DNA of 64,000 nucleotides, from NCBI GenBank assembly GCA_030704615.1, contig CM060733.1:59706001-59770000 (forward strand), written 5' to 3'. Position numbers and translations under genes: made by a program. Below the pieces are notes generated by a model. The model was not told the origin of the DNA. It did no database searches and saw only the letters and a list, made by a program, of their open reading frames with translations. The stretch is from Takakia lepidozioides (lineage: Eukaryota; Plantae; Bryophyta). Shown piece after piece: positions 5,566 to 27,872 of this stretch; the stretch's first letter is position 1; each line of letters starts with the position of its first letter.

Positions 5566-5826
5566 CCCACGACTCCCACCACGAGGTCTCCGCCCCCATG
5601 GTGAGTCCTATGTCACCCCCACTAAGTCCCGCTAAGCTACCACCACCCCTTGTGGAGCCACCCCCACCGCAACCCGGTGTGCGGGGCTCCACCTAGTGAG
5701 CGCCTCCGCCTCCTTGAGTGCCTTGGGCACTCAAGGGTGCTTCAGCCCCCCATACCTATCACTGCCGTTGTCCCCACCACAGGGGCAGCCCCTCATGTGT
5801 CCCGACCCCCTGCCCTCAAGGCGACA
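5566..5826 (-). mobile_element. Truncated LTR of the chromodomain-Gypsy family (same LTR as 23232-23957)
   Basis: Near-identical to 23687-23957 and ends in ..CTCAAGGCGACA. The other part of the LTR is deleted together with the 5' end of the cargo gene. Confidence 0.9.
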
Positions 5827-7248
5827 TCAGTAAACCGATTTACACTGAAGGTCTGCGATAGCAAGGTATCAACGTACGCGAGGAAGGAAGATGGCTTCCT
5901 CTAAAGCGGAGTTATTCTCTAACGACAAACCAGTGCCATTCTCCCAGGAAGTCCTTGATAATGGATTTGCAATTGTTCTGGAAAATGTCTTGGCTACCGT
6001 TTTCAGCTTCAGAATGGCTCCATCTTTTGGAGAAAGAGGTGTACGATTTGAAAGGGAAGTTGTTGAAATACTCTTTCCAAAACCGTGATGAGACGGCTCA
6101 TGTCAGCCAGTGGAGAGTGCCCTGGTCGATACAGAGTACTTGGAGAGCCTCGGCAAAAGTCCCTTGGTCATATGTGACGCCGGGGACTGGCTGCTTCGGT
6201 CGTTGAAGACAAGAGGGAGGTGGTGGTGGAAAAAAAAGAACAGACGTCCTCCACTCCAATCGTTGAGCTTTCGGATTCGTCCGATGATGACATAAGTGAA
6301 ATTCCAAATCCAGTCCTTCCTACTGTGGTTGGAGAAGCTGATGAAGAAGATTTGTAGTGTCATTCCAAAAATACGGGCGATGGGAGGAATGGCTGGATTC
6401 AAAAGCGAGTTGCGAGGAATTGATTGGGAATCTTTGAAGCAGGTGCCTGTGAAGTTCTTGCCAGAGACTTTTGATGGCGATATCCTATTCGAGCTGCCTC
6501 TTCCTCCGCGAGTTGGAGGGTTGTAACAATCATGATGCATGGAATGGACAAGAAACACGACAGGCACCCGTGGTGTAGAACAAAAACATCCAATATTCAG
6601 AATGATGACAAGCTTGTTTTCAGGAGAACAGTTTGCAATGGACACCTTAGGTGTGATAATTTGAATTGCAGACACTTTCTTCAGTCTGGGGTTCATAATC
6701 AAAGCGAATGGGAGGGTCTGGCCGAAAATCCATTTCAGCCTGGGACTGCCCCACCACCGGCAAACACTTTCGTCTGCAAATTCTGCAAACTTGTGCCATC
6801 TGCTTGACGCTCTGCGGAGCAAGAATGTACTATGTTGTCCACCGTTTGAAAACAATGACAAGAGCTTGTGTGCATTTCAGATTCCATAACCATCCTGTCT
6901 CGAAGGGGGATTACAGGGAGAGTGTTGAGACAGTATCGAGGTTGATTAAACAGGATTTCGGGAGAAACCCATCCGCAACAACATCTGCAATTGCTCTTGG
7001 CGCAAGCAAGTCCTTCTTAGAAAGCCATATTTTGAGTGAAGGGGATTCTGTGGGGACTAAACTTGACGGTGCAGCATTGGACCTGGTCATGGATCATTTC
7101 TCCACTTTGAGTTCACCTAAAATTCGGCTTCAGATCAATGCATTAAGAATGGGTTCTGGTATCAGAGGCTACATAGACAACATTTTGGAGTTGAAACGAG
7201 TGAGCAAGTATGATACATCCAGGACAATGTATTCCCAGGTCAAGGTGC

Positions 7249-7436
7249 TGTCGTGCGCATACATATCGCTACACAACTACATCGCTGTCCAAAACCACAC
7301 AACACATGTGCACACCACACACTAGTATATCACTAGTCCACCACTAGTCCAGCCACTAGTCCAACCACTAGGCTACAACTAGTCAGTCACTAGGCTGCCA
7401 CTATGCTGCCCACTATGGCAGTCACTAGTCCACACA
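7249..7436 (-). repeat. Terminal repeat A (3' end of the DNMT-Gypsy element)
   Basis: Direct repeat of 24748-24931, rich in CACTAG units, and adjacent to the PPT. Confidence 0.9.
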
Positions 7437-7695
7437 ATCGCCCCCCTAGCTGGTGCTTAGGTCCCTCTAAGTCCAGGTAGCCACAAGATGTGATAGTGAC
7501 CATAGCCCCACTAAGTCCTCCGCCACTATCCCTACTACACTCAAACTCGATAGATCAAGAGGTCGGGTGCAAGAGTTGCCCCATCGTAGTCGCCGTCTTG
7601 CAACCTGTGAACTTGAGCTTGGGATCTCATGTATTGACTCCTATGAGCTTGGCCTCCCATGTCTTGTTAGCTGCCTCCAGTCATGTCCACTGCCA

Positions 7696-7966
7696 CTATC
7701 CCAAGCAGTGTGGACACAACCAATCTCCGTCAGGAACTTCTCAAGAGGTGGTGTCAAGCATCCCATATGCCAGCCCTTGAGCATCGATCACACACCAGCA
7801 TGGTGGCTACCCCTTTGGCAGACCCACAGAGCATGCACCTCAAACCTGCAGGTACCTTTGCCAAGTTTGGGTCAACTCTGCCATCGACATTGGGAAGGTG
7901 ACATGGCGCACAATTACGCACATGGTCCTTCCAAGTCATGTCATCCCGACCCTCCAAGATCAGGAC
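7696..7966 (-). pseudogene. Integrase C-terminus with PHD finger (DNMT-Gypsy)
   Basis: VLILEGRDDMTWKDHVRNC..CMLCGSAKGVATMLVCDRCSR/GWHMGCLTPPLE/VPDGDWLCPHCLG* is a C4HC3 pattern, read through two 1-nt frameshifts. Confidence 0.85.
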
Positions 7967-10374
7967 TGTCGTGGCCCTTTGCCTTGAGGGCAGGGGGTCG
8001 GGGACACATGAGGGGCTGCCCATGTGGTGGGGGCAGCGGGGCAGCGATAGGTATGGGGGGCTGAAGCACCCTTGAGTGCCCAAGGCACTCAAGGAGGCGG
8101 AGGAGGCGCTCACTAGGTGGAGCCCCGCACACGGGTTGCGGTTGTGGGGTGGGGGTGGCTCCACAAGGGGTGGTGGTAGCTTAGCGGGACTTAGTGGGGG
8201 TGACATAGGACTCACCATGGGGGCGGAGACCTCGTGGTGGGAGTCGTGGGGAGTCTTGGGACTCAGCACGGTCCATAGGGACCGTGGTGAGTGGGCCAAG
8301 ACTCACGCGACTCATCACCGGGAGTCGAGGGTTTTCGTGGTGGTTCGCCATTAAAATGGCATGGCTGGTTTGTGAAACCCCGCGGACAGCTACAGAGGTA
8401 TATATAGGAGAGTAGTAACCCCGAGAACGGTTGCAAGCCCGTTGGTGACCAAAAACTAGTGGATAAGCGAGGCGAGCCGGAAAAGGACCAAAGAGTGGGG
8501 AGCTGTTCGGACTGCCAACTAACAAAGGGAATTCCCGCTGGTTCCAAATCGGTGGAGGGTCTGTTGGGAGGACAACAAAAAGGGGACCGTTATGCCCCGG
8601 TGAGCAGCCGAAGCTCCAAGTTGGCCCAGCGGCCAGGTTGGGAGTCAGGCGCGCGCATCAAAGCGAGTAACCTGGCTCCTGGAGGAGCAGAGCAGTACTT
8701 CGGGCGGCCAAGTTGAGTGACGAGGATCGGGTGGAAGTGGCTCCCACCTATTTGAGAGGCTATGCTCAACAATGGTGCAGAAACGCCTTCACGACCGAGG
8801 TCCAAGCCCGGAAACCTTGAATGGAGTGGGTTCAAGGAATTGATGAAGAGACAGTTTGTGCCCCTCAACGCGTCCTGGCTTGCCCGGGACAAGATGAGGA
8901 ATTTGAAGCAAACAGATGACATTCGGGGGTATGTCCAGGCTTTCAATGTACTGTTGCTCGAAGTCGCGGACATGGCAGAACCAAAAATGGTCTTCAACTT
9001 TGTGGCGGGACTGGCCCCATGGGCAAGCGGAAGTTGGAGGAGGAGAAGCCACCCAAGACTTTGAACGAGGCAATTGAGAGGGCTGAATGTTTCTCGGATG
9101 TCCCTAGGGATGAGAGACAAGGCCGTACGAAGCTGAACCACAAGAAGACCCGGCGGAAAGGTGACTCCTTCCGACCGGAAAAGAAGTGGGATAGGCCACG
9201 CGGCGACAATGGCACGTGAAAATCGAAGGGAGTCACTTATTGCGTCCGCCACCTATGCTGTTGGATCTTGAAAATGAACCTGAGTACGAGGTGGAGGCAA
9301 TACTTAAGTCGAGGAGGTTCAAGAACCGAGAAACGGAGTATCTCGTCAAATGGAAGGGCTATCATCATGTGGAGGCATCTTGGGTGCGTGCCTCAGAAAT
9401 GGGAAACGCATCCGAGGCGGTTGCAGCTTTCGAAGGGTGACCTCAAAAGCGGAAGAAGCGTTGATGGGGACATCAACCTTGGAGCGTGGGGAGGAAATGC
9501 ATGCTGAGCTCGGCTTAGCTAGCTTAGGAATCCGATTGCAAAAACTTGTATTGTACAAAACGTGCTATAAATGAAATGGATTCCAAATGTTGTGCGTCCT
9601 ATTTTGTTGGAATGTGATGCATGGTATAGTTGGCTAGTGTGTAGAATGCATGCTAGCTTATAAAAGTGGGAGAGGTAAATTGGGTTAATCGGTGTTTGCG
9701 TAGTGCCGAAATCGGGTGACCCCCATCCGAGGGGCAAGGAAACTTGCGCCTTCTTTGGGAGTTCACGTGCTAGTGCGCACCTGGCGCGTGCGCGTATTAT
9801 AACTGCGCTACCGAGGGGGTTGCCTTGTAGTGCGGGCTAACGCGGAAGCCACGTGCTTCCGTTCACGTACTATAATTGTGTAGCCTCGGGACGAAGTCCT
9901 AGTGCGATTTCGGCGTGTTCCCGTACCGTAGGCCAGCATTCCAAGGCGGACCCAATTGTAGTGATTGGGGCGCACGGTTGGTTCAAGGTTATCCTCCTAG
10001 TCAAAGAGGGTTCCAGGTGAACCCTTGCTCAAGGTGATGCCAAAAAGCGGCATCATAAGCGGTCGCAAGCAATGTTGTTGCAGTAAGGCGATTCGATCCT
10101 CGGGGAGGATCGTTCCTTGGCCTTGAAGTAGGCCAAGAAGAGTGCACTGGGAGGAGCTGGAGAGGCTCCACCCTTGGCCGGGACTTGGAGGAAGTCGGGC
10201 CGAACTAGCTAGTGGAGAGTAGAGTCAAGTGTGGGGTTTGGTTCTTTGTCATGGGACGCCATGGTGCGGAAACAAACTCCTTGATGTGGGACGCCACAAC
10301 TTGGATGTTCGTTTCTACAAAATGGACAAGTCGATGAGGACATCCACTCCCTGTTGGTAGGGGTGTGTGTCGCG
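7967..10374 (+). mobile_element. Internally deleted chromodomain-Gypsy copy nested in the DNMT-Gypsy integrase
   Basis: 5' LTR at 7967-8670 (truncated), gag fragment at 8672-9218, chromodomain EYEVEAILKSRR..EYLVKWKGYHHVEASW at 9280-9440, purine tract near 10355-10363. Only TGTCGCG of the 3' LTR remains before DNMT-Gypsy integrase sequence resumes. Confidence 0.85.
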
Positions 10375-12900
10375 TACCCACACGTCCGGATCGTCAAGGT
10401 TAAGGACTTGAGAGCAGTGTCCCTACGAATGGCTGCAGGCAAATCCGGCTCTCGGCCAAGAGAAGGAAATATGGTGAGAAGGAGGCAAGTGATGCTTGTT
10501 TGCTGAACCTGTAGCCCATGGCTAACCAAAGAACCTGAAGATCCCAATCTCCTAGGTGTCCCTTCTGCAAGCCATACTTGCGCAAACCCCTCTTCACCGT
10601 CTGAACAACTCTCTCTGCTAAGCCATCGGCCTCAGGATGATCCCGAGAAGTGGTGCGGTGGTCTATCAAGGCTTTATCACACAAAGCCTGAAACTCCCCC
10701 AAGAACTCTCTCCCTTGGTCCGTGAGTACCTCAGCTGGAGCACCAAATCGGCTAAGCACACGATCCAAGAATGCATACGCAGCCCCCTCACTAGCCTTGT
10801 CAGGCAATGGAACCAACTCAATCCACTTGGAGAAGTGCTCCACCATCACCAACACATATCTGTGGTGGCGCATAGTCAGTGGCAACGGTCCTGCGAAGTC
10901 AAGACTCCACCTGTAGCCCAATCCCATGATTGGTAAAGGATGCAACTGTGGTGTAGGGGCGTTGAATGAAGCACGCACCCTGTCACACACCATGCACCTA
11001 GCCACGAACTGTTGCACCTCTGTATGCATACCACGCCACCAATACTGCCTGCAGTAAACTGTGAGTGCGTCGCACTCCAAAATGCCCCAACTCCTCATGG
11101 GCATGCCGCACTAACCGTGCACGCTGTGTGGGGTGAGGCACAATCCTCACCCGACCATCCTCCCACACTCGAAGTAGGTGTATCCCCTCCCACTTGAACC
11201 TCTTGGCTCGTTGCAGGATCCGATCCTCTCCCTGGCAGTCACAGTGGCTGCCGTGTCTCCCGTGCGGAGGTAGTCCAACACAGCCGAATCCTCATGTATA
11301 TCTCTGGCACCACCTGGCTCATCACTAGCCTCAGGGTCCTCAGACACTCCGTCTACAGTCATCCCTGTTGTAGGTCCAACCTGACCTCCCGATGCCAAGA
11401 TACACAAAAATGCAGATGCGTGCCATCCCGACACATCTCCTCGTCCGTCTCACCATGCACCGAGCTCCAGTGTCATCCTGCTGGCTCATGCATGGATTGC
11501 GACTCAATCCATCCGCATCCCGATTGACCAAACCCGGTCGATGCACAACCTGAAAGTCATACTCCTGGAGTATATGAGTGCCCACCGTGCAAGCTTCCCC
11601 GTAAGCTTGTCTGACTCCATCAACCACTTGAGTGGCTGGTGATCCGTGACAAGGGTGAAAAGATTGCCGTATAGATAGCACCTGAAGTGTGCCACGGCCC
11701 ACACTGCAGCTAAGCACTCTCCCTCATATGAGCTGTACTTAGCCTCTGCAGCGTTGTTCGAGCGGCTAGCATAAGCCACTACGAACTCTCTTCCCTCATC
11801 ATCCACCTGTGTGAGCACCGCTCCAAGCCCCAGCATGCTCCAATCCGTATGCAGCTGAAAGGGACGCCCCCTGATAGGTCGTCTCAAGATAGGCGCCGAG
11901 GTCAACCTCGCCTTGAGCTCTTGAAAAGCTCGTTCCTGCTCATCTTCCCACTGCCACTCGGTCCACCTTGGTCAGCTTGGTTAGAGCCTTTGCAATGGTA
12001 CTAAATCCCTTGACAAACCGTCTATAATAGTTTGCCAACCCCATGAAAGCTCGAACTCGGCTCACATCCGTGGGGCATTGTGCAATGGCCTCTACCTTAG
12101 TCTGCTGTACCCCCAATCCTCCAGGATATATCATGTGACCCAGATACTCAATCTGGTTGTGGAAAAACTTGCACTTCCCCGGATGCAACTTCAATCCGTG
12201 CGCTCTCAAGCGCTCCAATACCACCTGAAGGTGTCTCTCATGCTCCTCCATCGTAACACTAAAGATGATGATGTCATCTATGTAGCACCGAGCAAAGTCC
12301 ACCCCTGCTAGAATCCTATCCATGACTCTCTGAAACTCTGCAGGAGCATTCTTAAGCCCAAATGGTAAGAACCGCCACTGATATAGGCAATCCTTGCCGT
12401 GCTCATTGATCCCCCAGAATGTCGTCTTCTGCTTGTCCGCCTCCTTGATTGGCAACTGGTGATATCCGGATCGTAAATCCAAAGTGCTAAAGCCTTAGCA
12501 TGCCCGATGGCATCAAAGATCTCCTCTGGTGTTGGCATGGCATACTTATCGGACTTGGTCTGACGATTTACAGGCCGGTAATCACCGCACATACGTCTCT
12601 CCGTCCAATTGCCATAGACATCCTTCTTGGCTGGCATCACTGTGGCTGAAGCATACTCTCCACCAGAGAGCTCCACCAAACCTGCCTCCCAGAGATCTTG
12701 AGTCCTCATCTGAATCAAAGACCTCTCCATGTCACTGTATCTATAGGGTCTCCGAAAGATTGGCGTGTCAGTGGCCAACTCAATACGGATCTCTTGACCC
12801 TTCAGTGCTCCAAGTCTTCAAACTGAAGCAAAGCAATTCCTGTAAGCCCTCAGGAACCGCCGTATACGTCGTCTCTCTCCTCCGGTGACAATGGGTCCAA
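10375..12900 (-). pseudogene. RT, RNase H and integrase core of the DNMT-Gypsy element
   Basis: RT: RMCGDYRPVN, DLRSGYHQ, LPFGLKNAPAEFQR, YIDDIIIFS. RNaseH: LHTDWSMLGLGAVL, YSSYEGECLA, VTDHQPL. Integrase: CMVC, WSLDFAGP, LTDQGREF, HPEADGLAER. Confidence 0.95.
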
Positions 12901-13269
12901 TGTCAGGCTCCCAATTGTCCTCCGTAACTGCAACCTTAAGTCCAGTGGGCTTAGAGGTAGAGGACGCGTCCAGTGGTTGCTATGTTGCAACCTCTTGAGC
13001 AGTACTCCCTACCTGCTCAGTCAATGACAAGGCCTCATCCTGCCCCATCATCTCATCCTGAGGACTCCTCACCGAGAAAAATCCCCAACCTCATCACGCC
13101 ACCTTGGCTGCCAACTCCTCTGAACCTCGAGCACCTCCCACGTGTGCCATGGATGCATGCACCCCGTGGTCCTCACATGCTCGCCCCACTCACTGCCTGT
13201 ACCGTCTCGGTAGGCAGAGAGACCATGAGGGAAGTGTACTCCGCACTCTGCGTTGCTCAGCCAGAGCCA

Positions 13270-14215
13270 AGCTGATAATCCAGGTCAAGCAATTGAGATC
13301 CATTGCTTGCCCCAACACTTGACGACGTGATGCCTCAGAAAGAGACGACACCGCCGTGGTACCAGTGGTAAAACCCATTGCCCGCTCACGCTCGTCAGCA
13401 TTAGGCTCCACTAACTGCTAAACTGAGCATCCCACAGGAGGCCAGGTCCACTATCCCGGAAAGCATGCGATCCTGGGAAGCTGAGCAGTGTAGGTAATGC
13501 TGCTCGTGGTTGACCCACCTTGTTGACCACTGCCAAAGGCGAACGGTCATCGTGTCTCACACGCTGAGACTGCCTCCCTGTGTCCAGAATGTTATCCACT
13601 GTGAGATGTGCTGGCCGCTGCACCCCATCAAATGCACGCTTGAGCAGTGCGGGTGGCATCAAGTTAGTCCACCATAGCCGTGGACGATGAGCCCGTGACC
13701 CCACTGTAGCTGCATCTAGCAACACTGCTGACCCAAGCCACGACCGGACTTGATGCACACTGGCCATCACCCTGGCCCGAGAATCGCCCATCAGTGGCAC
13801 ATTCTCCAAGATGTATGCTGGAGATACAGCTTGATGAAGCTGCAAGTGGCGCAAAACCCGCCATCTCCCAAAACAGACCCGACCTCGAGTCTCGCAATCC
13901 ATTGCCATGCCCGGCTGATGAATGCCCTTGGCAGGGCCAACCTGCCACTACCAGATCAATGGAGCCAACCCGCTCCAAATCCTGCGCCCCCAGCAACGAA
14001 ATGTCTGCTGGCAAGGCCTGCTGATATCCACGAATTGCAGACACCGACAACAACTCAGGGTACCGCTGCACCAACTGAGCAACATGGCGAAGTGAAACGC
14101 GTCGTGCAGTCTCATCCCTCTCCACATACAGGTAACGCCGAACTCGACACCTGCCTGTAACACAGCAGCCAATCCGGTGCTGATCCCGCCAAACAAGTCC
14201 AGAAGACAAATGCCT
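13270..14215 (-). pseudogene. C5 cytosine DNA methyltransferase domain within the Gypsy polyprotein
   Basis: Motif I LLDLFGG, II YVERD, III ADI, IV GWPCQG (13923-13943), VI ILENV (~13800), VIII HRPRLWW, IX ERERAMGF, X RRQVLGQAM, read across a few 1-nt frameshifts. Confidence 0.93.
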
Positions 14216-14559
14216 TCATCCGGATACTGCCACACAATAGGTGTGGTGTCCAATGGAGACAATTGAGGTGGTCCTGGTGCAATCCCCGCACTCTCCTCCT
14301 CTCCTGACGGTACAAAAAGCCTCCACCCAGGCTTGTTGCACCCGTCGATCAGCATCCCGCTGCAAATCCTTGCTCGTGCCCCACAATGGAGTCTGAGCAA
14401 CCATGGTAGGCAACTCCGCCATACCATACATGTCATCCTGCTCTCCCGGAGGTGGTACATCCTCTGAATGAGCGTTGCCCTCAAGCAACTCTCTAGGCCA
14501 ACTCACTGCCGCTGTGAATGCTGCTAGTGTCGGCATCTTGCCTCGCTGGGCAACCGCAA

Positions 14560-17120
14560 CTCCTCCTATGAACGTCACAGGGAGCTGCACACGCCGGCCC
14601 TCCCCTGACTGCCATGCAGGCCTATAGGAAGCTGACTCCTCCCAAAAATCCAGGGTGAAGCCCATGGGGTAAACACTGCCCCACCAACCAGGACATCGTA
14701 TGAGACCGCGTCTGTCACAATGGCCTTGGCTCGCATCACTGAGCCATCTGTAGGGTGATCCGGCCGTAGTCTGATAGCCAACTCACGCCGTGTCCATGCC
14801 CCGAGCCTGCTCCGATCCTCCCAGAGACGTCTGTATCTGGAAAGGACAAGGCTCCATATCCGCCTCCGTGAGGCCCAAGCCTGCAATAGCAGCTCTGCCC
14901 AGCATCAATGGCTGAGCTCCCGAGTCCAACAAGACCCGCAGTGGCCGGTACCTCTTGCCTGCCGGTCCACTCAAACAGAAAATGCCATCCTGGTTGTCTA
15001 ACATGAACTCCAGGTGTCACCATGGCGCGCTCAATGGCTGGCCTAGCTGGCAGCTCCATCAACCTGGCAGCTGCAGCTTGCCATGGCGCCGCCGTGGCAG
15101 TCTTGACCCTCAAATCCGAGGATCCCTCCGGCACTACACCTCCCACTATAACCTCCCCACTCTCACAGTGTAGCTGCCAGCCTGAACACCTCAGCTGGTC
15201 TTACCCCCGGCGTCGCAATCATGGTAGCCGAGAACAATGGAGCCTGGCACACAGATGTGGCCGCTCCTAGCAGCACACTAGCTGCCGTAGCCTTGGCAAA
15301 CTAGGTAGTGGTGCTACCCGTGTAGCTCTCCCCAATGGCATAGTAACCTCCGCCTCGGTAACAGTCGGGCGAGAACTAGGTGCCATGGATGGCGTCGACA
15401 CTGTCTCCGCCAATGTGAATGACTGAGGAAGCCTAGCCTGACGGCTTGCCTCCCCACGCTGTGGATCCAACTCCACCTCTGCACCTCGTGGCTCAGGAAC
15501 TCGTGCTGCTCCTCGAGTCACGGCTGCAGCAGACTCCACCTGCACTAGTGGTAGTGCTGCTCCACACATGAATCCCATGCCTCCCATATCTCCTCCCTCA
15601 GGAGCAGGAGGTGGACCATCCGGCCTTAGAGCCGGTACCACCTGAGCTGTAGCCATGGCAGCGAGCCTCTGCTCTAGCTGCTGAAGCCGGTTGGCCATGC
15701 CTTGGTCAACACCCTGACCTCCGCGTCCTTGGCCATGTTGAGCTTGCCCTTGGCCTGCACCTCGTGGCTGGCCACCTCGTCCTCTCTGGGCTGCTCCACC
15801 TCGCCCCGGCCACCATGTTCCCTTGGAACTGGCCTGGGCGCAACTCAGGATGCAAACCATAACACTGGGCCTCTCCATGCCCGTGCTTGCCACAATGCCC
15901 ACACTGCAACTGTGCAGGCTGTGCATGTGCCGGCCCTTTGCCTCCCTCTGGGCAATCCTTCTTGACATGGGGTCCTCCACATGTCCAGCACACCACATCC
16001 GCCCGTTGTTGGCCAGCAAAATGAAGGGAGAGACCCCTGCATCTGAGGTCCTCTCTGCCCTTCCCTGAGCTTCACCTGAGCCCCCTTGTTGCCTTGAGCA
16101 CGTTGAGGTAGTGGTTGGCTAGGAGCACCACTACCCCGTGGTGTCTCCTTAGCAAATCCCACCATGACCACTCGTTCCTCCACCATGTTGAGCTCTATCC
16201 GCTCTGCCAGCAAAAACACATTTGCTAAGGTGGGTTGGGCCGCTTGTAGGAGAGTTGCATCCCGCACCCTTCTCCTCAGCTCCTTGTCCAATATCCCATA
16301 CCAGAATTGGACTGCCTGAGCTTCCGTAACCCCTTGGGTTACATTTATCAAGCGCCTCATGCGAGTGAAAGCCTCCCTCAAGCTCTCGGTCGGCTTCCGT
16401 TGGAACTCTTGCAAGCTCCGCAACTTTCTGTCCTCACCCCTTGGTAGTTCCCTCTCAACTCTTCGAAGAACTCCACAACAGGGTTGAAGGCAGGCACGGG
16501 TGCTAGTGCTGGTGCGGTAGTGGCTTGGGTGGACGTCGTAGCTACTGTACCACCAGTCCCACTAGTCCCACTGCTTGCTGAAGCTGCCGGTGCAGCGGCA
16601 GGTGTAGCCACTGCCCTCGTGGCTCTAGTGCCCCTAGTGATGGAGACATAGTCGGGTGACCAGTACATCCTCCACTCCTCGATCTCAACCTCATGCCCCC
16701 GCCTGAACTCATGGTAATCATCCATAGGCGGCCCCTCAAGGTGCTGAAACAGCCCCTTCCATGCCATGAAAGGCGTAAATAGTTGTGGATTGCGCATTTG
16801 CTGCAAATCACACCAACTATCAAACTCTTGGATAAAATCATCCAACTCGATGGTGCCCACCCCCAGAGTACCTTCGTGGCCCCTTGGTAGCTCCATACAT
16901 CTCCTCCATTGTGTCCCACAACAATGGCAAAGAAACAACTTGCACCGCCGGTATGAGTCCTCCTGATTCACAATCCGAATCAGAACCTTCCGTAGAAGAC
17001 ACAGAGGTGAAGGTGGCCTAAACCGCACACCTCGTCTCGTGTACCCACTAGTATCGCTAGTGCTCGAACCGGCACTCCCCAGCAACTAGTGGCACCTCCG
17101 TGTTGACACTCAACCGGTCA
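14560..17120 (-). pseudogene. Gag (two zinc knuckles) and aspartic protease of the DNMT-Gypsy element
   Basis: Gag-like FQRKPTESLREAFTRMRRL. Knuckles CWTCGGPHVKKDC and CGHCGKHGHGEAQC. Protease RVLLDSGAQ..YDVLVG. Confidence 0.85.
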
Positions 17121-17789
17121 TGAACATGTCCCTAACCCCCTCTCCACAAGGGTAACCGGGTAGAGAACCTGTTGCGGCTTATGGTTTGGAATACTAAGTT
17201 CCTAACATAGCCTACACCTGTACCTGCATCCACCGCAAGCACTCCTATGGTTGGCTGGTCATCACCTCCAACCTCACCACAGGAGAAACAATGATGGTCT
17301 GGCTGGTCATCACCCCCAGCCTCACCATCGACAGCATGCTCTAGGACTGGCCGGTGATCAAATCCGGACCAATCACCTATAAAAACAAGCGCCCACACAA
17401 AACTAGCATGGCGCACAGTCAAGCATGCAGGTATGGAGGGGATCCAAACACAAGAAATCAGAACGACAACTCCCCCACACCAAAAACAACTCCACGGTGT
17501 TGCTCCTGCAAGGACACCCCAGCCCAAACCCGGACTGACTCTTGCCTCCACCTACGGAAAGGTCTTGGCCTAATGAGAGGGTGGAAACTACGAGGAAGAG
17601 AAGCTAAAGCAATGCCTAACCCCAGCATGCCTCATCCCAACACTCTTCCTCTCCTCTCTCCCTCACTTGCATGACCATGGGAATATCATGAAGATACTCC
17701 TCAAACGCCCTCCACGAGCTTCAAAATTCGGCCTTCAAGACCACATGCCAGTCCTTAGGCAGTCCACCAGTGCCTCCAGAGTCAGCACA

Positions 17790-18852
17790 GGCCGTCAGGT
17801 CCACAGCCACCACAGACCAGCACAGGCCCACACAGCTCAATGGTCACAGCCGTCACAAGCCCCACACAGGCCAGCCTGTCACAACCCTACACAGTCACAG
17901 GATCACAGCCCCACAGCCTGTAGGTGTCACAGCCCGTCACAACCCCAAAGGCCACAGGCACCTGTCAAGTCCTACAAAGGCACTCACAGCCCCAAAGGCC
18001 ACCTGTCACAGCCATCACAGCCCCACATGCCACAAGGCAGCCTGTCACAGCCCTTCATAGCCCTCCCAGAGGCCACAGGGCACAGCCTGTCAAGCCCCTC
18101 ACAGCCCATCACAGCCCCACAGGCCACAGGCACAGCCTGTCACAGCCCCTCACAGCCCCGTCACAAGCCCACAGCCTGTCACAGTCACAGCCCCACAGGC
18201 CAAGGGCACAGCTGTCACAGCCCCTCACAGCCCTCACAGCCCCACAGGCACTGGCACAGCCTGTCACAGCCCCTCACAGCCCTGCACAGCCGTCACAGCC
18301 CCCTCACAGCCACAGCCCCACAGGCCACTGGGCACAGCCTGTCACAGCCCTCACAGCACAGCCACACACAGCCCGTCACAGCCCGTCACAGGCCACATGG
18401 CACAGCTGTCATAGCCCTCACAGCCCGTCACAGCTCGCCACAGCCCCATAGGCCACATGGCACAGCTTGTCATAGCCCTCACAACCCGTCACAGCTCGCC
18501 ACAGCCCCACAGGCCACATGGCGCCGCCTGTCACAGCCCCTCACAGCCCGTCATAGCTCGCCACAACCTGTTACAGCCCGTCACAAGCCCCACAGGCCAT
18601 AGGGCACAGCCTGCAGGCACTGGGCACACAAGCGTCACAGCACACAGTCACAGCCCGTCACAGCCCCACAGGCCACTGGGCACAGCCCGCCACAGCCCCA
18701 CAGCCACTGGCACAGCCTGTCACAGCCCCTCACAGTCCGTCACAGCCCCACAGGCTACACAGCCTGTCACAGGTCACAGCCCACAGGCCATTGGGCACAG
18801 CCTGACACAGCCGCCACAGCCCCACAGTGGCACACACAGCCCCACAGGCCAC
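17790..18852. repeat. Degenerate CACAGCC-based minisatellite in the 5' leader of the DNMT-Gypsy element
   Basis: About 1 kb built from CACAGCC, GTCACAGCC and CACAGGCC variants. Confidence 0.9.
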
Positions 18853-19722
18853 TCATGACAGTTTAGCCATTTCTCCAAGGGGTTTAGCCACGCCAAACTA
18901 GGGTTTGTGTCTCTTGGACTCTAGGCTTCTTTGCACCGAGCTATGGCGGCTGTGAAGAAATCAGCAAGGTATTCTTGCTCTTTCGGCTCCCACACACCAC
19001 CAATAGTAGCCCTAAGCCATGAGGAAGATGGTTGCCACAAACCAAACCTTCTTTCTCACTTAGACTCCCCAAACACGCCACTAAACTCAATGGCAACCAA
19101 CCAAGCCTTGCTGGTTTCCAGCCCTTGTGAGCACTCATTCAAGCGTTTCCCTTGGCCATAGCATCTGTCTTAGAGCCTATTCCAGCCCCCTAAACCTGCC
19201 ACTTCAAAGAGCCATGCTCTATCTAGGCTTGAGGTTGAAACCCCAACTCAGAACACGCTCTACAAGTGTCGGACTGTCACATAAGAGCATATCAGCCCCT
19301 TACCTTCTCTTCTAGTTCTCGAAAGCTTGAAACCTTCAACAAGCTGAAAGCAGCTCCATACATGCATTGCTCTCACATAAGGGAAGTCAGCCCTTCCCTT
19401 TCCCTTGCTTGCCCTCCAAGCTTGAAGATGGAAGCTTCAATGAGCTGAATACATGCTCCACACATGCAACCTCTTCACACAAGAGGTATCAGCCCCCTAT
19501 CTTGGCTCCTTAGCTCCTTGATGCTCTCTAAGACAAGACTAAGCACTCTACAACCTTTGCCAAGCTCCTGAAACCCTAAGGCTTATATTTCCAGCCACAA
19601 GACACTTCTCTTGGTGGTGCAAGAGCTATTCTTCCAAGCTCTGAAACCCTAGGTGCACATTCCATGGCCTTTGCCGCACCTCTTAGCTCCTGTTCCAGCC
19701 CTGCTCTTGCCATGACAAGAGC

Positions 19723-22700
19723 TGTCGCGCCACCTCACTTCGGTAAGCTCCCCCCTCAAGTCATAGTTACTCGCTTTGATGCGCGCCTGACTCCCAACCT
19801 GGCCGCCGGGCCAACTTGGAGCTTCGGCTGCTCACCGGGGGGCATAACGGTCCCCCTTTGTTCTCCCAAAGACCCTCCACCGATTGGAACCAGCGGAATT
19901 CCCTTTGGTAGTGGCAGTCCGGAAACAGCTCCCCACTCTTTGGTCGCTTTCCGGCTCGCTCGCTTACTCACTAGTTTTGGTCACCAAGGGCTTGCACCGT
20001 TCTCGGGGTTACTACTCCCTATATATACTTCTGTAGCTGTCCGCGGGGGTTTCACAACTAGCCATGCCATTTTATGGCGAACCACCCACGAAACCCTCGA
20101 CTCCCGGTGATGAGTCGCGGTGAGTCTTGGCCCACTCACCACGGTCCCTATGGACCGTGATGAGTCCCAAGACTCCCCACGACTCCACCACGAGTCTCCG
20201 CCCCCATGGTGAGTCCTATGCCACCCCCACTAAGTCCCGCTAAGCTACACCACCCTTGTGGAGCCACCCCCACCGCAACCCGGTGTGCGGGGCTCCACCT
20301 AATGAGCGCCTCCGCCTCCTTGCGTGCTTGGGCACTCAAGGGTGCTTCAGCCCCCATACCTATCGCTGGCCGCTGCCCCCACCACAGGGGCAAACCCCTC
20401 ATGTGTCCCGACCCCCCCCTGCCCTCAAGGCAAAGGGCCGACGCATCTGTATGAATCTCAAATGGACGATCGAACTCCGGGATTTTTCAAGACTGGAGCT
20501 TCCGCCATCCGCTGCTTCAATTCAGCAAAAAGCTTGGCCACAAAATGTGTTTCCATACCTAGACTTTGGATTTACACAGAAGGTCCGACAGCGGCCGCCC
20601 CCGCGATCTTGGCGGAAATTTCTCACATACTTCGGTAATAGGAGGCGAGTCCTAGGAAGGATCGCACTCCCGGGACCGAAGTCGGAGGCTCCCAGTCCAA
20701 GATCGCCCTCACCTTTCTGTCATCCATTTTGATCCCATCCTGTGTAATCACATGCCCCAGGAACTCCACTTTTGTGACCCCGAATTTGCACTTTGAAGCT
20801 TTGGCATACAGCTTCCCTTCTCGCAATTTTGGAACACCCTTTTTAGGTGCTCCAGGTGTTCTTCCTTTGTTTTCGAGTACACCAAGATGTCGTCGATGTA
20901 CACGATCACAAAGTCATCCAACCACTCCTGGAAAAGGCTGTTCATCAGCGTGCTAAATGTCGCTGGTGCATTGGTGAGCCCAAAAGGCATCACCAAGAAC
21001 TCATATGAAACCATACCTTGTCCTGCACGCGGTCTTCTCCTCATCTCCTTCCGCCACCCGAATTTGATGATAGCCGGAGTGCAAGTCGATCCGGCTGAAT
21101 ACTTCGCTCCTGCCAACGATCGAAGAGGTTGTCGATCCTTGGCAAAGGGTACCGGTTTTTGATAGTCACCTATTCAGAGCCCTGTAATCGACACACATCC
21201 GCAGCGTCCCATCCTTCTTGTCTGCGAATAGCACCGGGGCTCCGTAAGGTGACTTACTCGGCGGATGTACCCCTTTGACATTAGATCCTTGAGCTGAGTC
21301 TTCAGCTCGACCAACTCCCTGTGGCTCAACCGGTAGGTGCCTTGGCAGGCGGGTTCCATTCCGGTATCACCTCAATCTTGTGGTCAACTCCTCTTCGCGG
21401 TGGTGGCAAGCCGCTTGGTAAATCCTCTGCATCACATCCTGGTATTTCTCCAAAATCCCTTGATCCAATCTGGGCTCAGCTCCCATCGCCTTCTCCCTTC
21501 ACTTCTCTAATGTAAAGCAAAAACTGGGGCTCGTGTGCCTCCTCCACGGCCCACTCCCTTGCTGACAGAAGGTTTATTCGCCCTCCCACGGATTTGGGTG
21601 TTTTCGACACTCGTAAGACCTCGCTACCATTCCCACAAGGCAGCGTGACTACTCTCTTACGGCCATCTATTACCGCTCCGGATTTGTTCAAAAATGTCAT
21701 CCCCAAAATGAGATCTACTCCATCGATCTCGCAGATGGTGAAGTTCTCACGTCCCTCCCAACTCCCCAGTTGAAGATGAACATCAAACGCCAACCTTGTC
21801 GTCAACTCTGGTTCCTTTGGCAGAACGCACCTCAATAGAGGCCCCCACGTCACTTGTCGGAGTCCCAACTTTCGCGCTGCCGCCGGCGTCATGAAGGAGT
21901 GCGACGCTCCTGTGTCCACCTACAACGACACGTTAGTTCCGGATATTATCCCATCCATGAACAATAACTGACTCCCTTTATGCAGGGCGCCAGTTTCCTG
22001 ATACAACTCACAAGAATAGTTGCCTACCTTGCAAGTCCTGGCGACCACCGCTTCCACCAAGCGACTGATGGTATCTTTCGACAGCTCCGTGGTTGCCCGA
22101 GTCATGTTCAATTGTCGAGGTTTCGTGCACTTCTTGGCCATGTGCCCGGGCTCCCCGCAATTGAAACACACTCCATCAAAGGTCGCCTTATGTCCGCCAT
22201 AAGCCGCTCCACCGCTTTTCCTTTCGAAGCACCGGGTGTCGCCTTGACGTGTGAAGGCCCTCCCTTCGATTTCCACGTGCCATTGTCGCCGCGTGGCCTA
22301 TCCACTTCTTTTCCGGTCGGAAGGAGTCACCTTCCCGCCGGGTCTTCTTGTGGTTCAGCTCCGTACGGCCTTGTCTCTCACCCCTAGGGACATCCGAGAA
22401 ACATTCAGCCCTCTCAATTGCCTCGTTCAAAGTCTTGGGTGGCTTCTCCTCCAACTTCCGCCTGGCCCATGGGGCCAATCCTGCCACAAAGTTGAAGACC
22501 ATTTCTGGTTCTTCCATGTCCGTGACTTCGAGCAATAGCACATTGAAAGCCTAGACATACCCCCGAATGTCATCTGTTTGCTTCAAATTCCTCATCTTGT
22601 CCCGGGCAAGCCAGGACGCGTTGAGGGGCACAAACTGTCTCTTCATCAATTCCTTGAACCCACTCCAGTTCAAGGTTTCTGGGCTTGGACCTCGGTCGTG

Positions 22701-23957
22701 AAGGCGTTTCTGCCACCATTGTTGAGCAGCCCCTCAAATAGGTGGGAGCCACTTCCACCCGATCCTCGTCACTCAACTTGGCCGCCCGGAAGTACTGCTC
22801 TAGCTCCAGGACCAGGTGTTGAGTGCCTTCCGATTTCGGACCCCTCGAAGGGTGCCGGGTTCCTTAGGCTTCACCTTAAACTTTGCCTTAGTGGAAGTGG
22901 CATTAGCCGCCTTCAACACGTCTTTCAACGTCCCGCCAAACTGCGCCAACAACCCTTCCCAAAAGGCTGCCGGCATGGGAGGCATCTCTTGGTTGTCGGA
23001 GCTCTCAAGGATTCCTCGGGCTCCGACTCCTTGGATTCCTCCCGCTCTTGAGCGGCCTCGTTTTCGGAAACATGCATTGCTTCCTCCGGCCTCGGTGACA
23101 CGTCGCCCCCATCGGGCTCACCAGGATCATCATCTTTTGGGCCGTTCCGCTTTCGCTTCGGCTTGCCCGACCCCATGATGAGGCCAATCCCAAGGACGAT
23201 CGCGTACTGAACTCTAAGCTCTGATACCAAGTGTCGCGCACCTCACTTCGGTAAGCTCCCCCCTCAAGTCATAGTTACTCGCTTTGATGCGCGCGCCTGA
23301 CTCCCAACCTGGCCGCCGGGCCAACTTGGAGCTTCGGCTGCTCACCGGGGCATACGGTCCCCCTTTGTTCTCCCAAAGAACCCTCCACCGATTTGGAACC
23401 AGCAGGAATTCCCTTTGGTAGTGGCAATCCGGAACAGCTCCCCACTCTTTGGTCGCTTTCCGGCTCGCTCGCTTACTCACTAGTTTTTGGTCACCAACGG
23501 GCTTGCACCGTTCTCGGGGTTACTACTCCCTATATATACTTCTGTAGCTGTCCGCGGGGGTTTCACAACCAACCATGCCATTTTATGGCGAACCACCACG
23601 AAAACCCTCGACTCCCGGTGATGAGTCGCGGTGAGTCTTGGCCCACTCACCACGGCCCCTATAGACCGTGATGAGTCCCAAGACTCCCCACGACTCCCAC
23701 CACGAGGTCTCCGCCCCCATGGTGAGTCCTATGCCACCCCACTAAGTCCCGCTAAGCTACACCACCCCTTGTGGAGCCACCCCCACCGCAACCCGGTGTG
23801 CGGGGCTCCACCTAGTGAGCGCCTCCGCCTCCTTGAGTGCTTTGGGCACTCAAGGGTGCTTCAGCCCCCCATACCTATCGCTGCCGCTGCCCCCACCACA
23901 GGGGCAACCCCTCATGTGTCCCGACCCCCCCTGCCCTCAAGGCAAAGGGCCGCGACA
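19723..23957 (-). mobile_element. Chromodomain-family Ty3/Gypsy element with two LTRs; RNaseH-integrase region deleted
   Basis: LTRs at 23232-23957 and 19723-~20445. 5-bp TSD AGAGC at 19718-19722 and 23958-23962. tRNA-iMet PBS TGGTATCAGAGC at ~23218-23229. Gag with CFNCGEPGHMAKKC, protease [20 protein letters not shown]. Confidence 0.93.
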
Positions 23958-24422
23958 AGAGCCCTCTCAATGTTGAAGCTCGAGATTGAAAACCAATCTC
24001 ACCATACTCCACAAAGTGCATTGATTTGCCCCAAGCCAAATCAGCCCTTTCGCTTGGTCTTGCAATCCTTCACACAATGAAAGCTCGCATTCCCAAGTCC
24101 AGTTCTCAGCTTTGCCACCAAAGCCACTATAACCTGCTCTTGACTAGTCATCTTCCCAATCGTGCTTGCTCATGCATGTACATAATCTGAAACCATCAAG
24201 GTGCTCTGGAATTACCTGCAGCATGGTGCTTTCATCTCTGAAGCTGAAGATCGAATGCCAAGGTCTACCACCTCGTAACCCACATCGCCTCCGCTTTTAA
24301 CAACCAAGAGCTCCACGGTGCTCCTTGCATAACAACTTGGTTTTCTCTTCTCAAGCAAAAACCACAAGTGCTACAACTAACTCGTATCTGGCACTCACAG
24401 ATACGAGCTGATCTTTCTCGAG

Positions 24423-25259
24423 TGATAAAGAAGAAGAATACAAGCACAAGCTCATGCGAGCTCACAAGCTGAAGCATAAATTCATGCATATATAACCTCA
24501 TCACTCAAATACAAGTCAAGCCAAGTGCACCCCACGCCATGGGGAATCCACACTACGGCGCCATAGCTAGGCGCGGTGAGGCTCAACTCGAGAAAGATGA
24601 GCCTCCCGCACTTGCCGTGAAGATAACCACTCCAGGGCCTAAATGTCTTGACCCCTGGATTGACACTTGGGCCAATCCCAAATGTCAATATGTAAAAGCT
24701 AGCTATTTCCTAGCTAGTTTCACACTAGTGGAAAATAACTTGACAGCTCGTGCGCATACATATCGCTACACAACTGCATCGCTGTCCAAAACCACACAAC
24801 ACATGTGCACACCACACACTAGTATACCACTAGTCCACCACTAGTCCAACCACTAGTCAACCACTAGGCTACAACTAGTCAGTCACTAGGCTGCACAATG
24901 CTGCCCACTATGGCAGTCACTAGTCCACACAATGATAAAGAAGAAGAATACAAGCACAAGCTCATGCGAGCTCACAAAGCTGAAGCATAAATTCATGCAT
25001 ATATAACCTCATCACTCAAATACAAGTCAAGCCAAGTGCACCCCACGCCATGGGGAATCCACACTACGGCGCCATAGCTAGGCGCGGTGAGGCTCAACTC
25101 GAGAAAGATGAGCCTCCCGCAGTTGCCGTGAAGATAACCACTCCAGGGCCTAAATCTGCCTTGACCCCTGGATTGACACTTGGGCCAATCCCAAATGTCA
25201 ATATGTAAAAGCTAGCTATTTCCTAGCTAGTTTCACACTAGTGGTAAAATAACTTGACA
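24423..25259 (-). repeat. B-A-B terminal repeat block at the 5' end of the DNMT-Gypsy element
   Basis: B1 at 24423-24745, A at 24748-24931, B2 at 24933-25259. B1 and B2 are near-identical, and A matches 7251-7436. Confidence 0.92.
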
Positions 25260-27146
25260 GTGCCATCAAAGTTTTTCTTTTCAAAATGTCGACTGTTGGG
25301 GATGGCAGTGGGGTTAGCCTCGTGAAGCGGATGCAGAAGACTGGGGACTTGCAGAACTGTTTTCTTATGTTTGATCATGTGAAACAAGTGAAGGATTGGA
25401 CGATAATGGCTTGTCATGTCTACGATCACCAACGAGTTATGACAATTGCAGTTTGTGACATGCAATCCGAGGATACGGAATCCCAGAAGCTCATGTGGAA
25501 TTCCCTGATACGTGTCATGGGCTGCCATCTCCAAATTTTGCAGGTTTCATGGCGGATAGTGCTCAAGCAATTTCAATGCTGTTCGTATTGTCTTCGGATC
25601 GGGCGACCCAAAAGTGCCAATGCGAGGAAGAGAGCGTACATGTCTATTCCATTGGACACAATCTCTGGAAAAACATACAAAGTCGGACATCAAACCAGAG
25701 ATGCACACTCAGCACCGTAAATTGTGCAAAGAGTACAAAGATGCTAGAACAATGAAAGAGGCGGACACTTTGTTCCAGACAATTCGTGCCTGGGGTTTCT
25801 TTCTGGAGCTGCATCACTTGAGAGTATGAGAGCATTGGAGATTGGCTGGCGTTTTGGCACTTCCGGTATAGACAGTGGGGAGCAGCCATGCCAGTGGTAC
25901 GAGGCTTATGTTTCTTGCTTTATTCATACATTTACTTTCCATTTTATTGTGTCCTCGCTTTCTTTATGTTGTTTTCTGTTCACAGTTTGAAGTGTGGTTC
26001 TCCACTTTGCAGAACATGTCCATTGAGGAAATGGCGGACATGTCATCTTGCAATTTGGCAGAAACTGTGCACAATGCATGGTTGCAGCAGTCTGGGAAAC
26101 GAGGTCGGAATTTGTATGTGGCAACAACAGATGATTTGATACGTGCCTTGCAACAACAAACCCGATACCGTGATTTCTTACGAGGTGGGGTTGGTGACAA
26201 GGGTCCGGACAAATGGGAGTTGATGTTGCGTGCTGCAAACAGATCTGGGGATCCAATCAAGATAGCACGGGTGGTGAGCATGTATGCCCAGGGAACGCCA
26301 CTTGTTTCTAGAGTTCCACATCTTGAAGGGAGGAGAGATTCGGCTCCTGTAAGAGGAAATTGAACACTCCACCTGGTTCGGATTCCGATTCGCACAGGGC
26401 AGACCGTGATAACTTCTCGAAGCCTTGTGTTCCCCTGCATGACATCTCCATGTCCGGAACCTCCATTGTGGAGGAACCTCCAACACGACGGCAAGCTCCA
26501 GCATCAAACAGTGCCACTGAAATGGTGCAGGAGAGAAACAACCCCCTTGATGTGCTTGAGTCCGCATGCCCCGACCACGTTTGGCACATAGAACGCACAA
26601 GTGTAGGGTCTCGTGTGAAATGTACAGCGATTAGGGCAACTAATTTCGAGAAGTGCACTTGACCTATATCCAGAGGTGGAAACTCCTGCTCCGACTTTCA
26701 CGGGTTTGATGCGTCCATACGGTCAACCAGAAGCCAAGAACCACAAGTTCTGGTTCTGCGCAGATAATTGTGCCAGATGTGTGCATGGAACTGTGCGTCC
26801 TTCCGTAGTGATGAAGCCATCTCCTCCAACCGTTTGGCCCGTGAAGGTGGGAACACATCTCAGATTTCAGGAGATTGAAATGCTGGAGGAGGCAAGCTTT
26901 TCCCTTGCGAGACAACCCCAACTCCATGCATGTGCTACTACTTCTGCGTCCTCTTGGGTCCCCCTGGCAAATCCTGACTTGTGGCCAACCAAACGAGATA
27001 GAAAGCTCGTTCGGCGTTTCCCTCCAACCGCTGAACACTTTGGCAAAGTGGAGTCCGCAAGAATGCTCCAAACTCGTGTTGGAAGCACCACGGAAGTACC
27101 CGATCCCGGATATGGTCGGGTATTCATAATCATCACTTCCACATCT

Positions 27147-27872
27147 TGTCGCGGCCCCTTGCCTTGAGGGCAGGGGGTCGGGACACAAGAGGGGCTGCCC
27201 CTGTGGTGGGGTAGTGGCCTGCGATAGGTATGGGGGGGCTGAAGCACCCTTGAGTGCCCAAAGCACTCAAGGAGGCGGAGGCGCTCACTAGGTGGAGCCC
27301 CGCACCGGGTTGCGGTGGGGGTGGCTCCACAATGGGTGGTGGTAGCTTAGCGGGACTTAGTGGGGGTGGCATAGGACTCACCCTGGGGCGGAGACCTTGT
27401 GGTGGGAGTAATGGGGAGTCTTGGGACTCATCACGGTCCATAGGGGGCCGTAGTGGGTGGGCCAAGACTCACCGCGACTAATCACCGGGAGTCGAGGGTG
27501 TTCGTGGTGGTTCGCCATAAAATGACATGGTTGTTTGTGAAACCCCTGCGGACAGCTACAGAAGTATATATAGGGAGTAGTAACCCCGAGAACGGTGCAA
27601 GCCCATTGGTGTCCAAAAACTAGTGAGTAGCGAGCGAGCCGGAAAGCGACCAAAGAGTGGGGAGCTGTTCCGGACTGCCAACTACCAAAGGGAATTCCGC
27701 TGGTTCCAAATCGTTGGAGGTTCTTTGGGAGATCAAAGGGGGACCGTTATGCCCCCGGTGAGCAGCCGAAGCTCCAAGTTGGCCCGCGGCGGCCAGGTTG
27801 GGAGTTAGGCGCGCGCATCAAGCGAGTAACTATGACTTGAGGGGAGAGCTTACCGAAGTGAGGTGCGCGACA
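27147..27872 (+). mobile_element. Solo LTR of the chromodomain-Gypsy family
   Basis: Ends TGTCGCGG...GCGCGACA. 5-bp TSD CATCT at 27142-27146 and 27873-27877. The transposase frame (IITSTS/AVHDRTY) rejoins across it. Confidence 0.95.

Follow-up and report, generated by a model that had tools for sequence, protein, structure and literature searches.

The stretch of DNA analysed here, hereafter the window, comprises 64,000 nucleotides of Takakia lepidozioides and harbours at 7249-25259, on the minus strand, a decayed Ty3/Gypsy-PHD element in which a DNMT3-like C5 cytosine methyltransferase domain lies between the aspartic protease and the reverse transcriptase. In the reading that we prefer and hold to be fairly probable, it is a decayed copy from an abundant bryophyte Ty3/Gypsy-PHD family whose ORF1 encodes Gag, protease and the DNMT3-like enzyme and whose LTRs are permuted; the enzyme, packed in bulk, would methylate the cDNA, and a circle of end-joined cDNA would be cut inside an LTR. 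A bolder version, to which we give rather less than even credence, sees an old green-lineage clade with its attachment site in mid-LTR, which would integrate only from end-joined circles or concatemers, prime itself and pack the DNMT3-like enzyme 1:1 with Gag, its copies arriving methylated and the Takakia copy representing the reciprocal cut.

Layout of the element at the Takakia locus

Searches by tblastn with natural relatives recover the order gag, PR, DNMT, RT, RH, INT, PHD with E-values to 1e-98 and below, and this domain series in the Takakia copy is, at the level of sequence similarity, far beyond chance. The domain order gag-PR-RT-RH-INT with a DDE integrase, the TG...CA termini, the short target duplication and the polypurine tract are those of Ty3/Gypsy elements. 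The ends depart from the canonical form, as both the window and the relatives have split and permuted repeats instead of one whole LTR per end, and the element is filed as Gypsy because of its enzymes, not its ends. Nor is it a DIRS element, as it has an rve integrase and a target duplication instead of a tyrosine recombinase; a Pfam scan of 33 frame pieces, covering part of the element's frames, returned no recombinase family. In the following list, A and B are the two parts of the split terminal repeat, and I is used below for the internal region.

7245..7248, no strand: left target-site duplication GTGC, with the identical 4 bases at 25260-25263; empty-site contigs in host runs X1, X5 and X6
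7249..7437, minus: repeat B2, the 3' terminus of the element, ending in ...GACA; 97% to 24748-24933
7438..7447, minus: polypurine tract directly before B2 (sequence)
7705..7966, minus: PHD finger, end of ORF2, broken (tblastn with P0033, E=1e-10)
7967..10371, plus: nested insertion 2, a truncated unrelated LTR element (self-BLAST; empty-site joint)
10372..11228, minus: integrase, H2C2 zinc finger and rve core (Pfam rve E=3e-14, Integrase_H2C2 E=7e-6; motif positions)
11500..12916, minus: reverse transcriptase and RNase H, frameshifted (Pfam RVT_1 E=9e-31, RT_RNaseH E=2e-34)
12974..12982, minus: conserved ORF1 stop in the readthrough-type context TAG CAA CCA (sequence and relatives)
13232..14214, minus: DNMT3-like C5 cytosine methyltransferase domain, motifs I-X (Pfam, tblastn, motif mapping)
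14659..15004, minus: aspartic protease, LLDSG at 14932, frameshifted (tblastn to relatives)
15150..16900, minus: Gag (tblastn to P0011, E=1e-42; weak Retrotrans_gag, E=0.036)
17790..18860, no strand: degenerate CACAGCC-rich tandem repeat of ~1 kb in the 5' leader (sequence comparison)
19723..23957, minus: nested insertion 1, an ordinary LTR element, internally deleted (~720-bp LTRs, 5-bp duplication AGAGC)
24407..24423, minus: primer-binding-site position, not tRNA-like; 16/17 complementary to 24586-24602 in repeat A
24423..24745, minus: repeat A2, with TGTCA start and TATCA end; 98% to A1
24746..24933, minus: 2-nt spacer and repeat B1; the B1/A2 junction is degenerate in the Takakia copy
24934..25259, minus: repeat A1, the 5' terminus of the element; A1/B1 junction at about 24933, and an X3 contig bridges the A/B junction
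25260..25263, no strand: right target-site duplication GTGC (sequence)

Several parts call for detail. The PHD finger is separated from the integrase by nested insertion 2, which includes an LTR (7967-8671), a gag piece and a chromodomain near 9228-9440 (Pfam Chromo E=1e-13); other host copies join 10371 to 7973. The RT motif YIDD maps to 12284 on the minus strand, and two zinc-knuckle-like motifs lie inside Gag at 15990-15877. For the protease, Pfam Asp_protease_2 gives a weak match on the relative P0005 (E=1e-3) and none on the window's own protease piece. A G-rich tract like that at 7438-7447 also precedes B in L003, L010, L016, L019, L021, L027, L030, L042 and L049. The 5' leader is much shorter in metagenome relatives than in the Takakia copy with its CACAGCC-rich repeat. 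Nested insertion 1 has a tRNA-type primer site, which we take to be of the tRNA-iMet type, and serves as an internal control.

On an 11-kb stretch, more than 120,000 contigs align per host run, most of them 90-100% alike, a summed depth that does not equal a copy number. Against high-depth host contigs, parts of the element align without substitutions but with gaps, and between the repeat pairs of the Takakia copy gaps likewise outnumber substitutions. Therefore, some of the breaks in this copy may be assembly errors.

The methyltransferase domain

The sequence-only reading had described C5-methyltransferase motifs lying in order between protease and RT on one strand. All eight indeed map there, on the minus strand and in canonical order: LDLFGG (14202-14185), YVERD (14128-14114), ADI (14008-14000), GWPCQ (13942-13928), ENV (13806-13798), RAHRPRLWW (13695-13669), ERAMGF (13387-13370) and LGQAM (13315-13301). 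The domain is broken in the Takakia copy by frameshifts near 14141, 13861 and 13425 and by a stop at 13420-13418. The search with Pfam DNA_methylase (PF00145) that the same reading had proposed matches the frame piece carrying motif IV (E=2.8e-8, 34 bits for a cut-off of 22), and the remaining two frame pieces put to Pfam have no match individually. Motifs I-X with PC, ENV and RxR, followed over the window and 60 loci, and the Pfam match thus characterise a C5-methyltransferase.

The type of enzyme was addressed with the natural relative P0002. Ranked by sequence against the PDB, it comes closest to DNMT3A (6e-12) and DNMT3B (1e-9), followed by DRM-type enzymes (1e-8 to 2e-4), and bacterial enzymes reach 4e-4 or weaker (M.HhaI 4e-3). 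Its structure was predicted from an 81-row alignment with a pLDDT of 94 and a pTM of 0.92; an earlier model from 12 sequences, with a pLDDT of 46, was set aside. The predicted model has the C5-methyltransferase fold, and among the matches listed by Foldseek every one is DNMT3A, DNMT3B or DNMT3C. With VIA-align, the Z score is 28.9 for DNMT3B (rmsd 2.6 over 279 residues), 27.6 for DNMT3A, 25.3 for M.MpeI, 22.6 for M.HhaI, 18.4 for DNMT1 and 18.1 for ZMET2, DNMT3 being ahead of the bacterial M.MpeI by 3.6; DRM2 aligns over 137 residues only, with a Z of 9.4. The motif order is unrearranged, DNMT3-type rather than DRM-type. By similarity in sequence and in modelled structure, the methyltransferase family of the Takakia element is DNMT3-like.

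As to base composition, CpG observed/expected is 0.53 and CHG 1.08 in the element; the corresponding values of both nested elements are 0.78 and 0.65-0.76. Such a CG-poor, CHG-normal composition would fit self-methylation at CG, but host genes show the same. The common metagenome family is depleted in both CG and CHG and decays at both alike.

A family spread through bryophytes

When the C-terminal half of the DNMT domain is used as query, 35 longer proteins at E<=1e-3, 42-72% identical, emerge among 1734 candidates; names among the relatives include Marchantia polymorpha, Calypogeia fissa, Riccia sorocarpa and Sphagnum troendelagicum. A representative protein library adds 616 clusters at E<=1e-3, and a metagenome scan 64 loci, most of them one abundant family and several of them repeats of one insertion. 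The long metagenome loci have the order gag-ZF-PR-DNMT-RT-RH-INT-PHD. In viral contigs, P0007 has no match, and an alignment query gave one weak unrelated match. The complete 1083-residue RT-RH-INT-PHD frame P0320 comes, by its source name, from a transcriptome assembly, which hints that some clade members are transcribed.

The catalytic residues, which the sequence-only reading had found to be retained, persist as PC and ENV in the Takakia copy; across aligned loci the catalytic Cys is retained in 52/52, the Pro in 51/53 and the ENV Glu in 52/56. All seven checked residues are intact in 29/60 loci. Intact relatives had also been anticipated, and relatives with an open domain do exist, including three metagenome loci with an uninterrupted domain frame. 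The dN/dS estimate that had been suggested as a check is at most 0.17 for the DNMT between families, with dS at or near saturation, and was taken from locally well-aligned codons only, so that it leans towards conservation. This constraint resembles that on Gag and PR and is weaker than that on RT, RH and INT (0.02-0.07). Within the abundant family, dN/dS is 0.27-0.69 in all domains, as expected for decaying copies. On these codon comparisons, the DNMT domain is under purifying selection.

More distant relatives, including a pol of Scenedesmus (a chlorophyte), have a domain of this kind placed between RNase H and integrase. This RH-DNMT-INT clade counts P0056, P0062, P0066, P0074 and about 50 more Gypsy-PHD polyproteins, some of which add Tudor or G-patch domains, a layout not found in the portions seen of the literature on such elements. 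In a quick tree of 74 of the 130 well-covered DNMT domains (retrotransposon rows only, unknown-order rows and near-copies being left out), the two layouts separate cleanly, 55 versus 19 rows, with 100% support. In an RT tree of 67 rows, from which seed-plant and arachnid outgroup rows were lost at the coverage filter, the RH-DNMT-INT group forms one side of a 99% branch. In both trees the Takakia copy clusters with Marchantia and Calypogeia, joined in the DNMT tree by Sphagnum. As far as sequence comparison goes, the DNMT domain is a trait of the family, and the family is widespread in bryophytes.

The stop between ORF1 and ORF2

In all 41 loci with both anchors (of 65 loci), the RT frame has a stop codon at the homologous position. 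The DNMT shares this frame in 31 of them, the other 10 having copy-specific shifts, and CAA follows the stop directly in 39/41; as background, CARYY comes after 0.8% of all stop triplets of the same loci. From the end of the methyltransferase tail to this stop, which shares its frame with RT-RH-INT-PHD, there are about 40-75 residues. In many annotated relatives, the protein ends 38-77 residues past the conserved HPW motif, and many stand-alone RT-RH-INT-PHD proteins are about 1030-1170 residues long. Since the conserved stop cuts the DNMT off from RT, the DNMT belongs to ORF1 together with Gag and PR. The earlier view of a DNMT in the polyprotein frame thus stands insofar as the domain is in frame with RT, but the conserved stop makes it a member of ORF1 and not of a continuous Pol.

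The conserved stop and its CAA context suggest readthrough into RT-RH-INT-PHD. The Takakia junction TAG CAA CCA (12982-12974) is an exact fit to the TMV signal UAG-CAR-YYA, a likeness of sequence alone; in stable plants, 6-10% readthrough was measured at this signal, and UAA likewise permits readthrough, according to the part seen of PMC2754532. A separate count of junction patterns gives TAG CAA CCC 25 times, TAA CAA CCC 12 times, TAG CAA CTA twice and three singletons. Unlike the TMV signal, the commonest family has TAR CAA CCC (37/42), one base off the CARYYA consensus, with an ATG two codons on, which leaves room there for re-initiation or a separate RNA. The deeper relatives P0114 and P0383 have no stop between DNMT and RT and consist of a single ORF.

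Permuted ends and priming

In coding orientation, the Takakia copy reads A-B-A-I-B, starts with TG, ends with CA and has GTGC on either flank. Relatives read A-I-B-A-B, as in L027 and L042 and at the 3' ends of L010 and L049 (the contig of L003 is cut short within A2), or stop after their first B, as L016, L021 and L019 do. A 4-bp duplication surrounds 5/5 insertions with both ends (window, L019/L049, L027, L033 and L042), unlike the 5-bp duplication of nested insertion 1, and the empty insertion site of the Takakia copy is present in contigs of three host runs.

The B/A junction reads CA-GC-TG (three loci) or CA-AT-TG (two loci) in 5/5 relatives, palindromic around two central nucleotides; in host run X3, the most frequent junction variant yields the same CA-NN-TG palindrome. 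The AT spacer could reflect a double CHG decay and not a compensatory change. The A/B junction differs in all 6 cases, with 0-1 nt, filler or retained leader, a raggedness expected from end joining of cDNA ends. With the polypurine tract in front of B and the primer-site position behind A, the replicative LTR is B-A, and joining the ends of B-A-I-B-A followed by one cut in the palindrome would yield exactly A-I-B-A-B or A-B-A-I-B. The latter is seen in the Takakia copy only, with 0/13 distinct 5' ends of relatives preceded by B, so this form is rare or peculiar to the Takakia host; host contigs are too short to confirm its whole repeat order. Circles of LTR elements are usually regarded as by-products.

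Other irregular ends were recorded. In L008 and L011 (about 6324-6576), an inverted copy of the 3' end including B takes the place of the 5' repeat A, perhaps through auto-integration, and L033/L034 carry an internal inversion. L019 and L049 share an insertion site, the 3' end being B-A-B in L049 and only B in L019. An att-like match in L055, L056, L057 and L060 was dismissed as chance after inspection of L055, L057 and L060.

Inspection by eye, without a tRNA set, finds no TGG-type tRNA primer site after repeat A, another departure from canonical LTR elements. The 17 bases in this place, with their 16 complementary positions in mid-A, score 15 against a maximum of 11 in 200 shuffles, and L042 has a 21/22 complement of different sequence, scoring 20 against a maximum of 10 in 200 shuffles; the complement is clearly above chance in only 4/12 relatives. 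The predicted fold pairs the primer-site stretch with the mid-A stretch. Directly after the primer-site position, at 24379-24405, lies a perfect inverted repeat of 10 bp enclosing a 7-nt loop. Elements compared here for self-priming are Tf1 and Tj1, in which the LTR arrangement is ordinary. Their primer site is complementary to a stretch inside the 5' LTR, as described in the part seen of PMC4600332; this self-complementary layout is common to them and the Takakia element, and Tj1 also has a gag-pol stop, but they are without a methyltransferase.

Proposed mechanism and alternatives

In the preferred reading, readthrough at TAG-CAA-CCA would give ORF2 at roughly a tenth, so that the DNMT would be made 1:1 with Gag. 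The protease would free the DNMT inside the particle, where it would methylate the cDNA de novo, probably at CG, and the new copy would thus arrive pre-marked. The sequence-only reading had likewise suggested release from the polyprotein, after which the enzyme may methylate the cDNA or new insertions. The linear cDNA, B-A-I-B-A, would be self-primed from its own 5' end; its ends would be joined in a circle or concatemer, and integrase would cut the palindrome of one LTR. If LTR1 were cut, the result would be the A-I-B-A-B of the relatives, and if LTR2 were cut, the A-B-A-I-B of the Takakia copy, a product without a 3' repeat that would be a dead end.

That the DNMT is useless to the element, being a captured piece of a host gene or an independent insertion into one copy, has next to no probability left. 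The Takakia copy is broken and carries two other nested insertions, as such an accident might; however, its PR-DNMT-RT position and order recur in liverwort, moss and metagenome relatives, selection on the DNMT is purifying, the Takakia DNMT and RT both cluster with Marchantia and Calypogeia elements, and the domain has neither an intron nor boundaries of its own. The idea of a private insertion is thereby refuted, in line with the sequence-only reading. A much more serious contender, although still an improbable one at about a one-in-four chance, keeps the architecture and moves the DNMT outside the particle, where it would methylate integrated copies or host chromatin, in self-restraint or to decoy host silencing, or would bind DNA or RNA non-catalytically. 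Placement in ORF1 gives a large excess of enzyme that such roles could draw on, self-limiting roles are discussed in PMC5890265 in the part seen, and the KnitGypsy DNMT described there was inactive in yeast. Against a purely non-catalytic role, the catalytic residues are all strongly retained. The distant clade with the domain between RNase H and integrase, where it is tied to the cDNA machinery, speaks against this alternative as well.

The odd ends could also have arisen without circle cutting, which we regard as unlikely, slightly more so than the preceding alternative: both palindromes of a linear cDNA would be cut, or recombination would follow insertion, the order in the window being a rare accident or an assembly error. 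A-I-B copies do exist (3' ends of L016 and L021), and TG and CA remnants on linear ends could be used by an ordinary integrase, but A-I-B without a 3' repeat could not replicate, and A-I-B-A-B with its ragged A/B junction requires joined cDNA ends. L019, which is the L049 insertion without the last A-B, documents recombination between B copies or assembly collapse, and the many small gaps between the Takakia repeat copies hint at assembly errors; yet simple recombination between repeats cannot convert A-I-B-A-B to A-B-A-I-B and keep the 4-bp duplication.

Genomic surroundings

The sequence-only reading had placed a Gypsy element in a land plant, among neighbours of land-plant type, and the domain series and the embryophyte-type genes around it bear this out: alliinase/TAR, DUF427, UBP, RPL10, a Myb/SANT exon (Pfam) and two DYW-PPR frames. 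The latter form a tandem pair of intact intronless DYW-type PPR genes at 51740-58803 (minus), and a third PPR-DYW piece lies at the window start (14-571, minus). In a quick tree of 38 E-DYW ends, which is without named hornwort, liverwort or fern rows, the window PPRs fall on the moss side of a 99% branch, lycophyte and seed-plant rows lying outside; the ESM Atlas places the PPR at the level of Streptophyta only. The DUF427 (NTP_transf_9) gene at 39397-39735 (plus; Pfam E=3e-17) belongs to a family mostly bacterial and fungal, so an old gene transfer is possible.

The element itself sits in a high-copy host repeat (5830-7244 and 25264-27140, plus), the frame of which continues across the empty site. 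This repeat looks transposase-like, and we presume it to be MULE-like; the pieces scanned match no Pfam family. One young ordinary LTR family with ~720-bp LTRs, 89-96% alike, is present at 19723-23957 (internally deleted with the 5-bp duplication), 7967-9232 (truncated), 27147-27873 (solo-LTR-like) and 5566-5822 (a fragment), two of these copies being inside the methyltransferase element. An AT-rich stretch at 30715-31590, in which inverted repeats of 84 and 135 bp are nested, is MITE- or foldback-like.

Relation to known systems

The closest known system is KnitGypsy-Dnmt3 of Klebsormidium nitens (de Mendoza et al. 2018, PMC5890265), described as having Gypsy domains, an intronless unrearranged DNMT3-like domain under purifying selection and DIRS-like repeats (A-coding-B-A-B), all by description like those of the bryophyte family. 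The differences are the algal host, whereas the bryophyte family lives in land plants and spans liverworts and mosses, and the ORF of the DNMT, which is shared with RT and RNase H in the alga, whereas the bryophyte family has a stop between them (41/41 loci). In yeast, the KnitGypsy-Dnmt3 enzyme produced no methylation, a result that its authors deemed inconclusive, and the part seen of their account gives no repeat mechanism, readthrough or self-priming (PMC5890265). Homologue searches here returned no Klebsormidium-named sequence, most matches carrying no name. To the sequence-only reading it has to be added that the family is widespread in bryophytes and, being DNMT3-like, close in kind to this published element.

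SymbioDIRS-Dnmt3, the DNMT3-type domain of which is reported to methylate CG de novo in yeast (PMC5890265, in part), resembles the bryophyte element in carrying such a domain in a retrotransposon and, with the split-direct-repeat DIRS elements, in its A-coding-B-A-B repeats, but the tyrosine recombinase of DIRS elements contrasts with the DDE integrase and the 4-bp target duplications of the bryophyte element. EpiLTRs and DAM-LTRs are likewise Ty3/Gypsy elements with DNA methyltransferases and a chromatin reader; as presented in the part seen of bioRxiv 10.64898/2026.05.21.726589, theirs are a DNMT4-sister DNMT, Dam and a chromodomain, as opposed to a DNMT3-like domain and a PHD finger. For circle cutting, the nearest biochemical precedent is foamy virus, whose integrase cleaves the palindromic junction of 2-LTR circles, a CA..TG palindrome in double-stranded DNA (PMC1180852, in part). 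There the palindrome arises from the joined cDNA ends, whereas in the bryophyte proposal it would lie in mid-LTR and the joined ends would be an inert internal seam.

Later literature, in the parts seen, places KnitGypsy-type elements in 'streptophytes' (PMC12344493; bioRxiv 10.64898/2026.05.21.726589), and the supplementary trees of both works could include bryophyte copies. According to an opinion paper, in the part seen, land plants such as tracheophytes have no DNMT retrotransposons (PMC6338049). In the full-text literature outside subscription journals and Repbase, no report of a land-plant DNMT-Gypsy family was found, nor of readthrough in DNMT-Gypsy elements or of circle-cut permuted LTRs; the portions seen of PMC8557442, PMC9940879, PMC7466625, PMC2774666, bioRxiv 363937 and bioRxiv 2021.11.30.470311 contain nothing on DNMT-Gypsy elements. 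The methyltransferase domain is a real, family-wide feature that extends this known kind of element to land plants; the translation layout and the integration route are strongly suggested by sequence comparison.

Significance

DNMT retrotransposons, so far described from dinoflagellates and a charophyte alga, are common in bryophytes, including the model Marchantia polymorpha. A Marchantia methylation mutant, Mpmet, exists (bioRxiv 10.1101/363937, in part), and the presence of the family in a species with such mutants makes the question raised in 2018, what a transposon gains from a DNMT, directly testable. The location of the DNMT in ORF1 predicts an excess of enzyme per particle. ORF1 products among annotated Marchantia genes could inflate DNMT counts, and finders that expect one LTR per end would likely miss or mis-cut a family with permuted LTRs. 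Finally, the ends point to the integration of an LTR element through circles, a route that would explain the so far unexplained DIRS-like repeats of KnitGypsy-Dnmt3.
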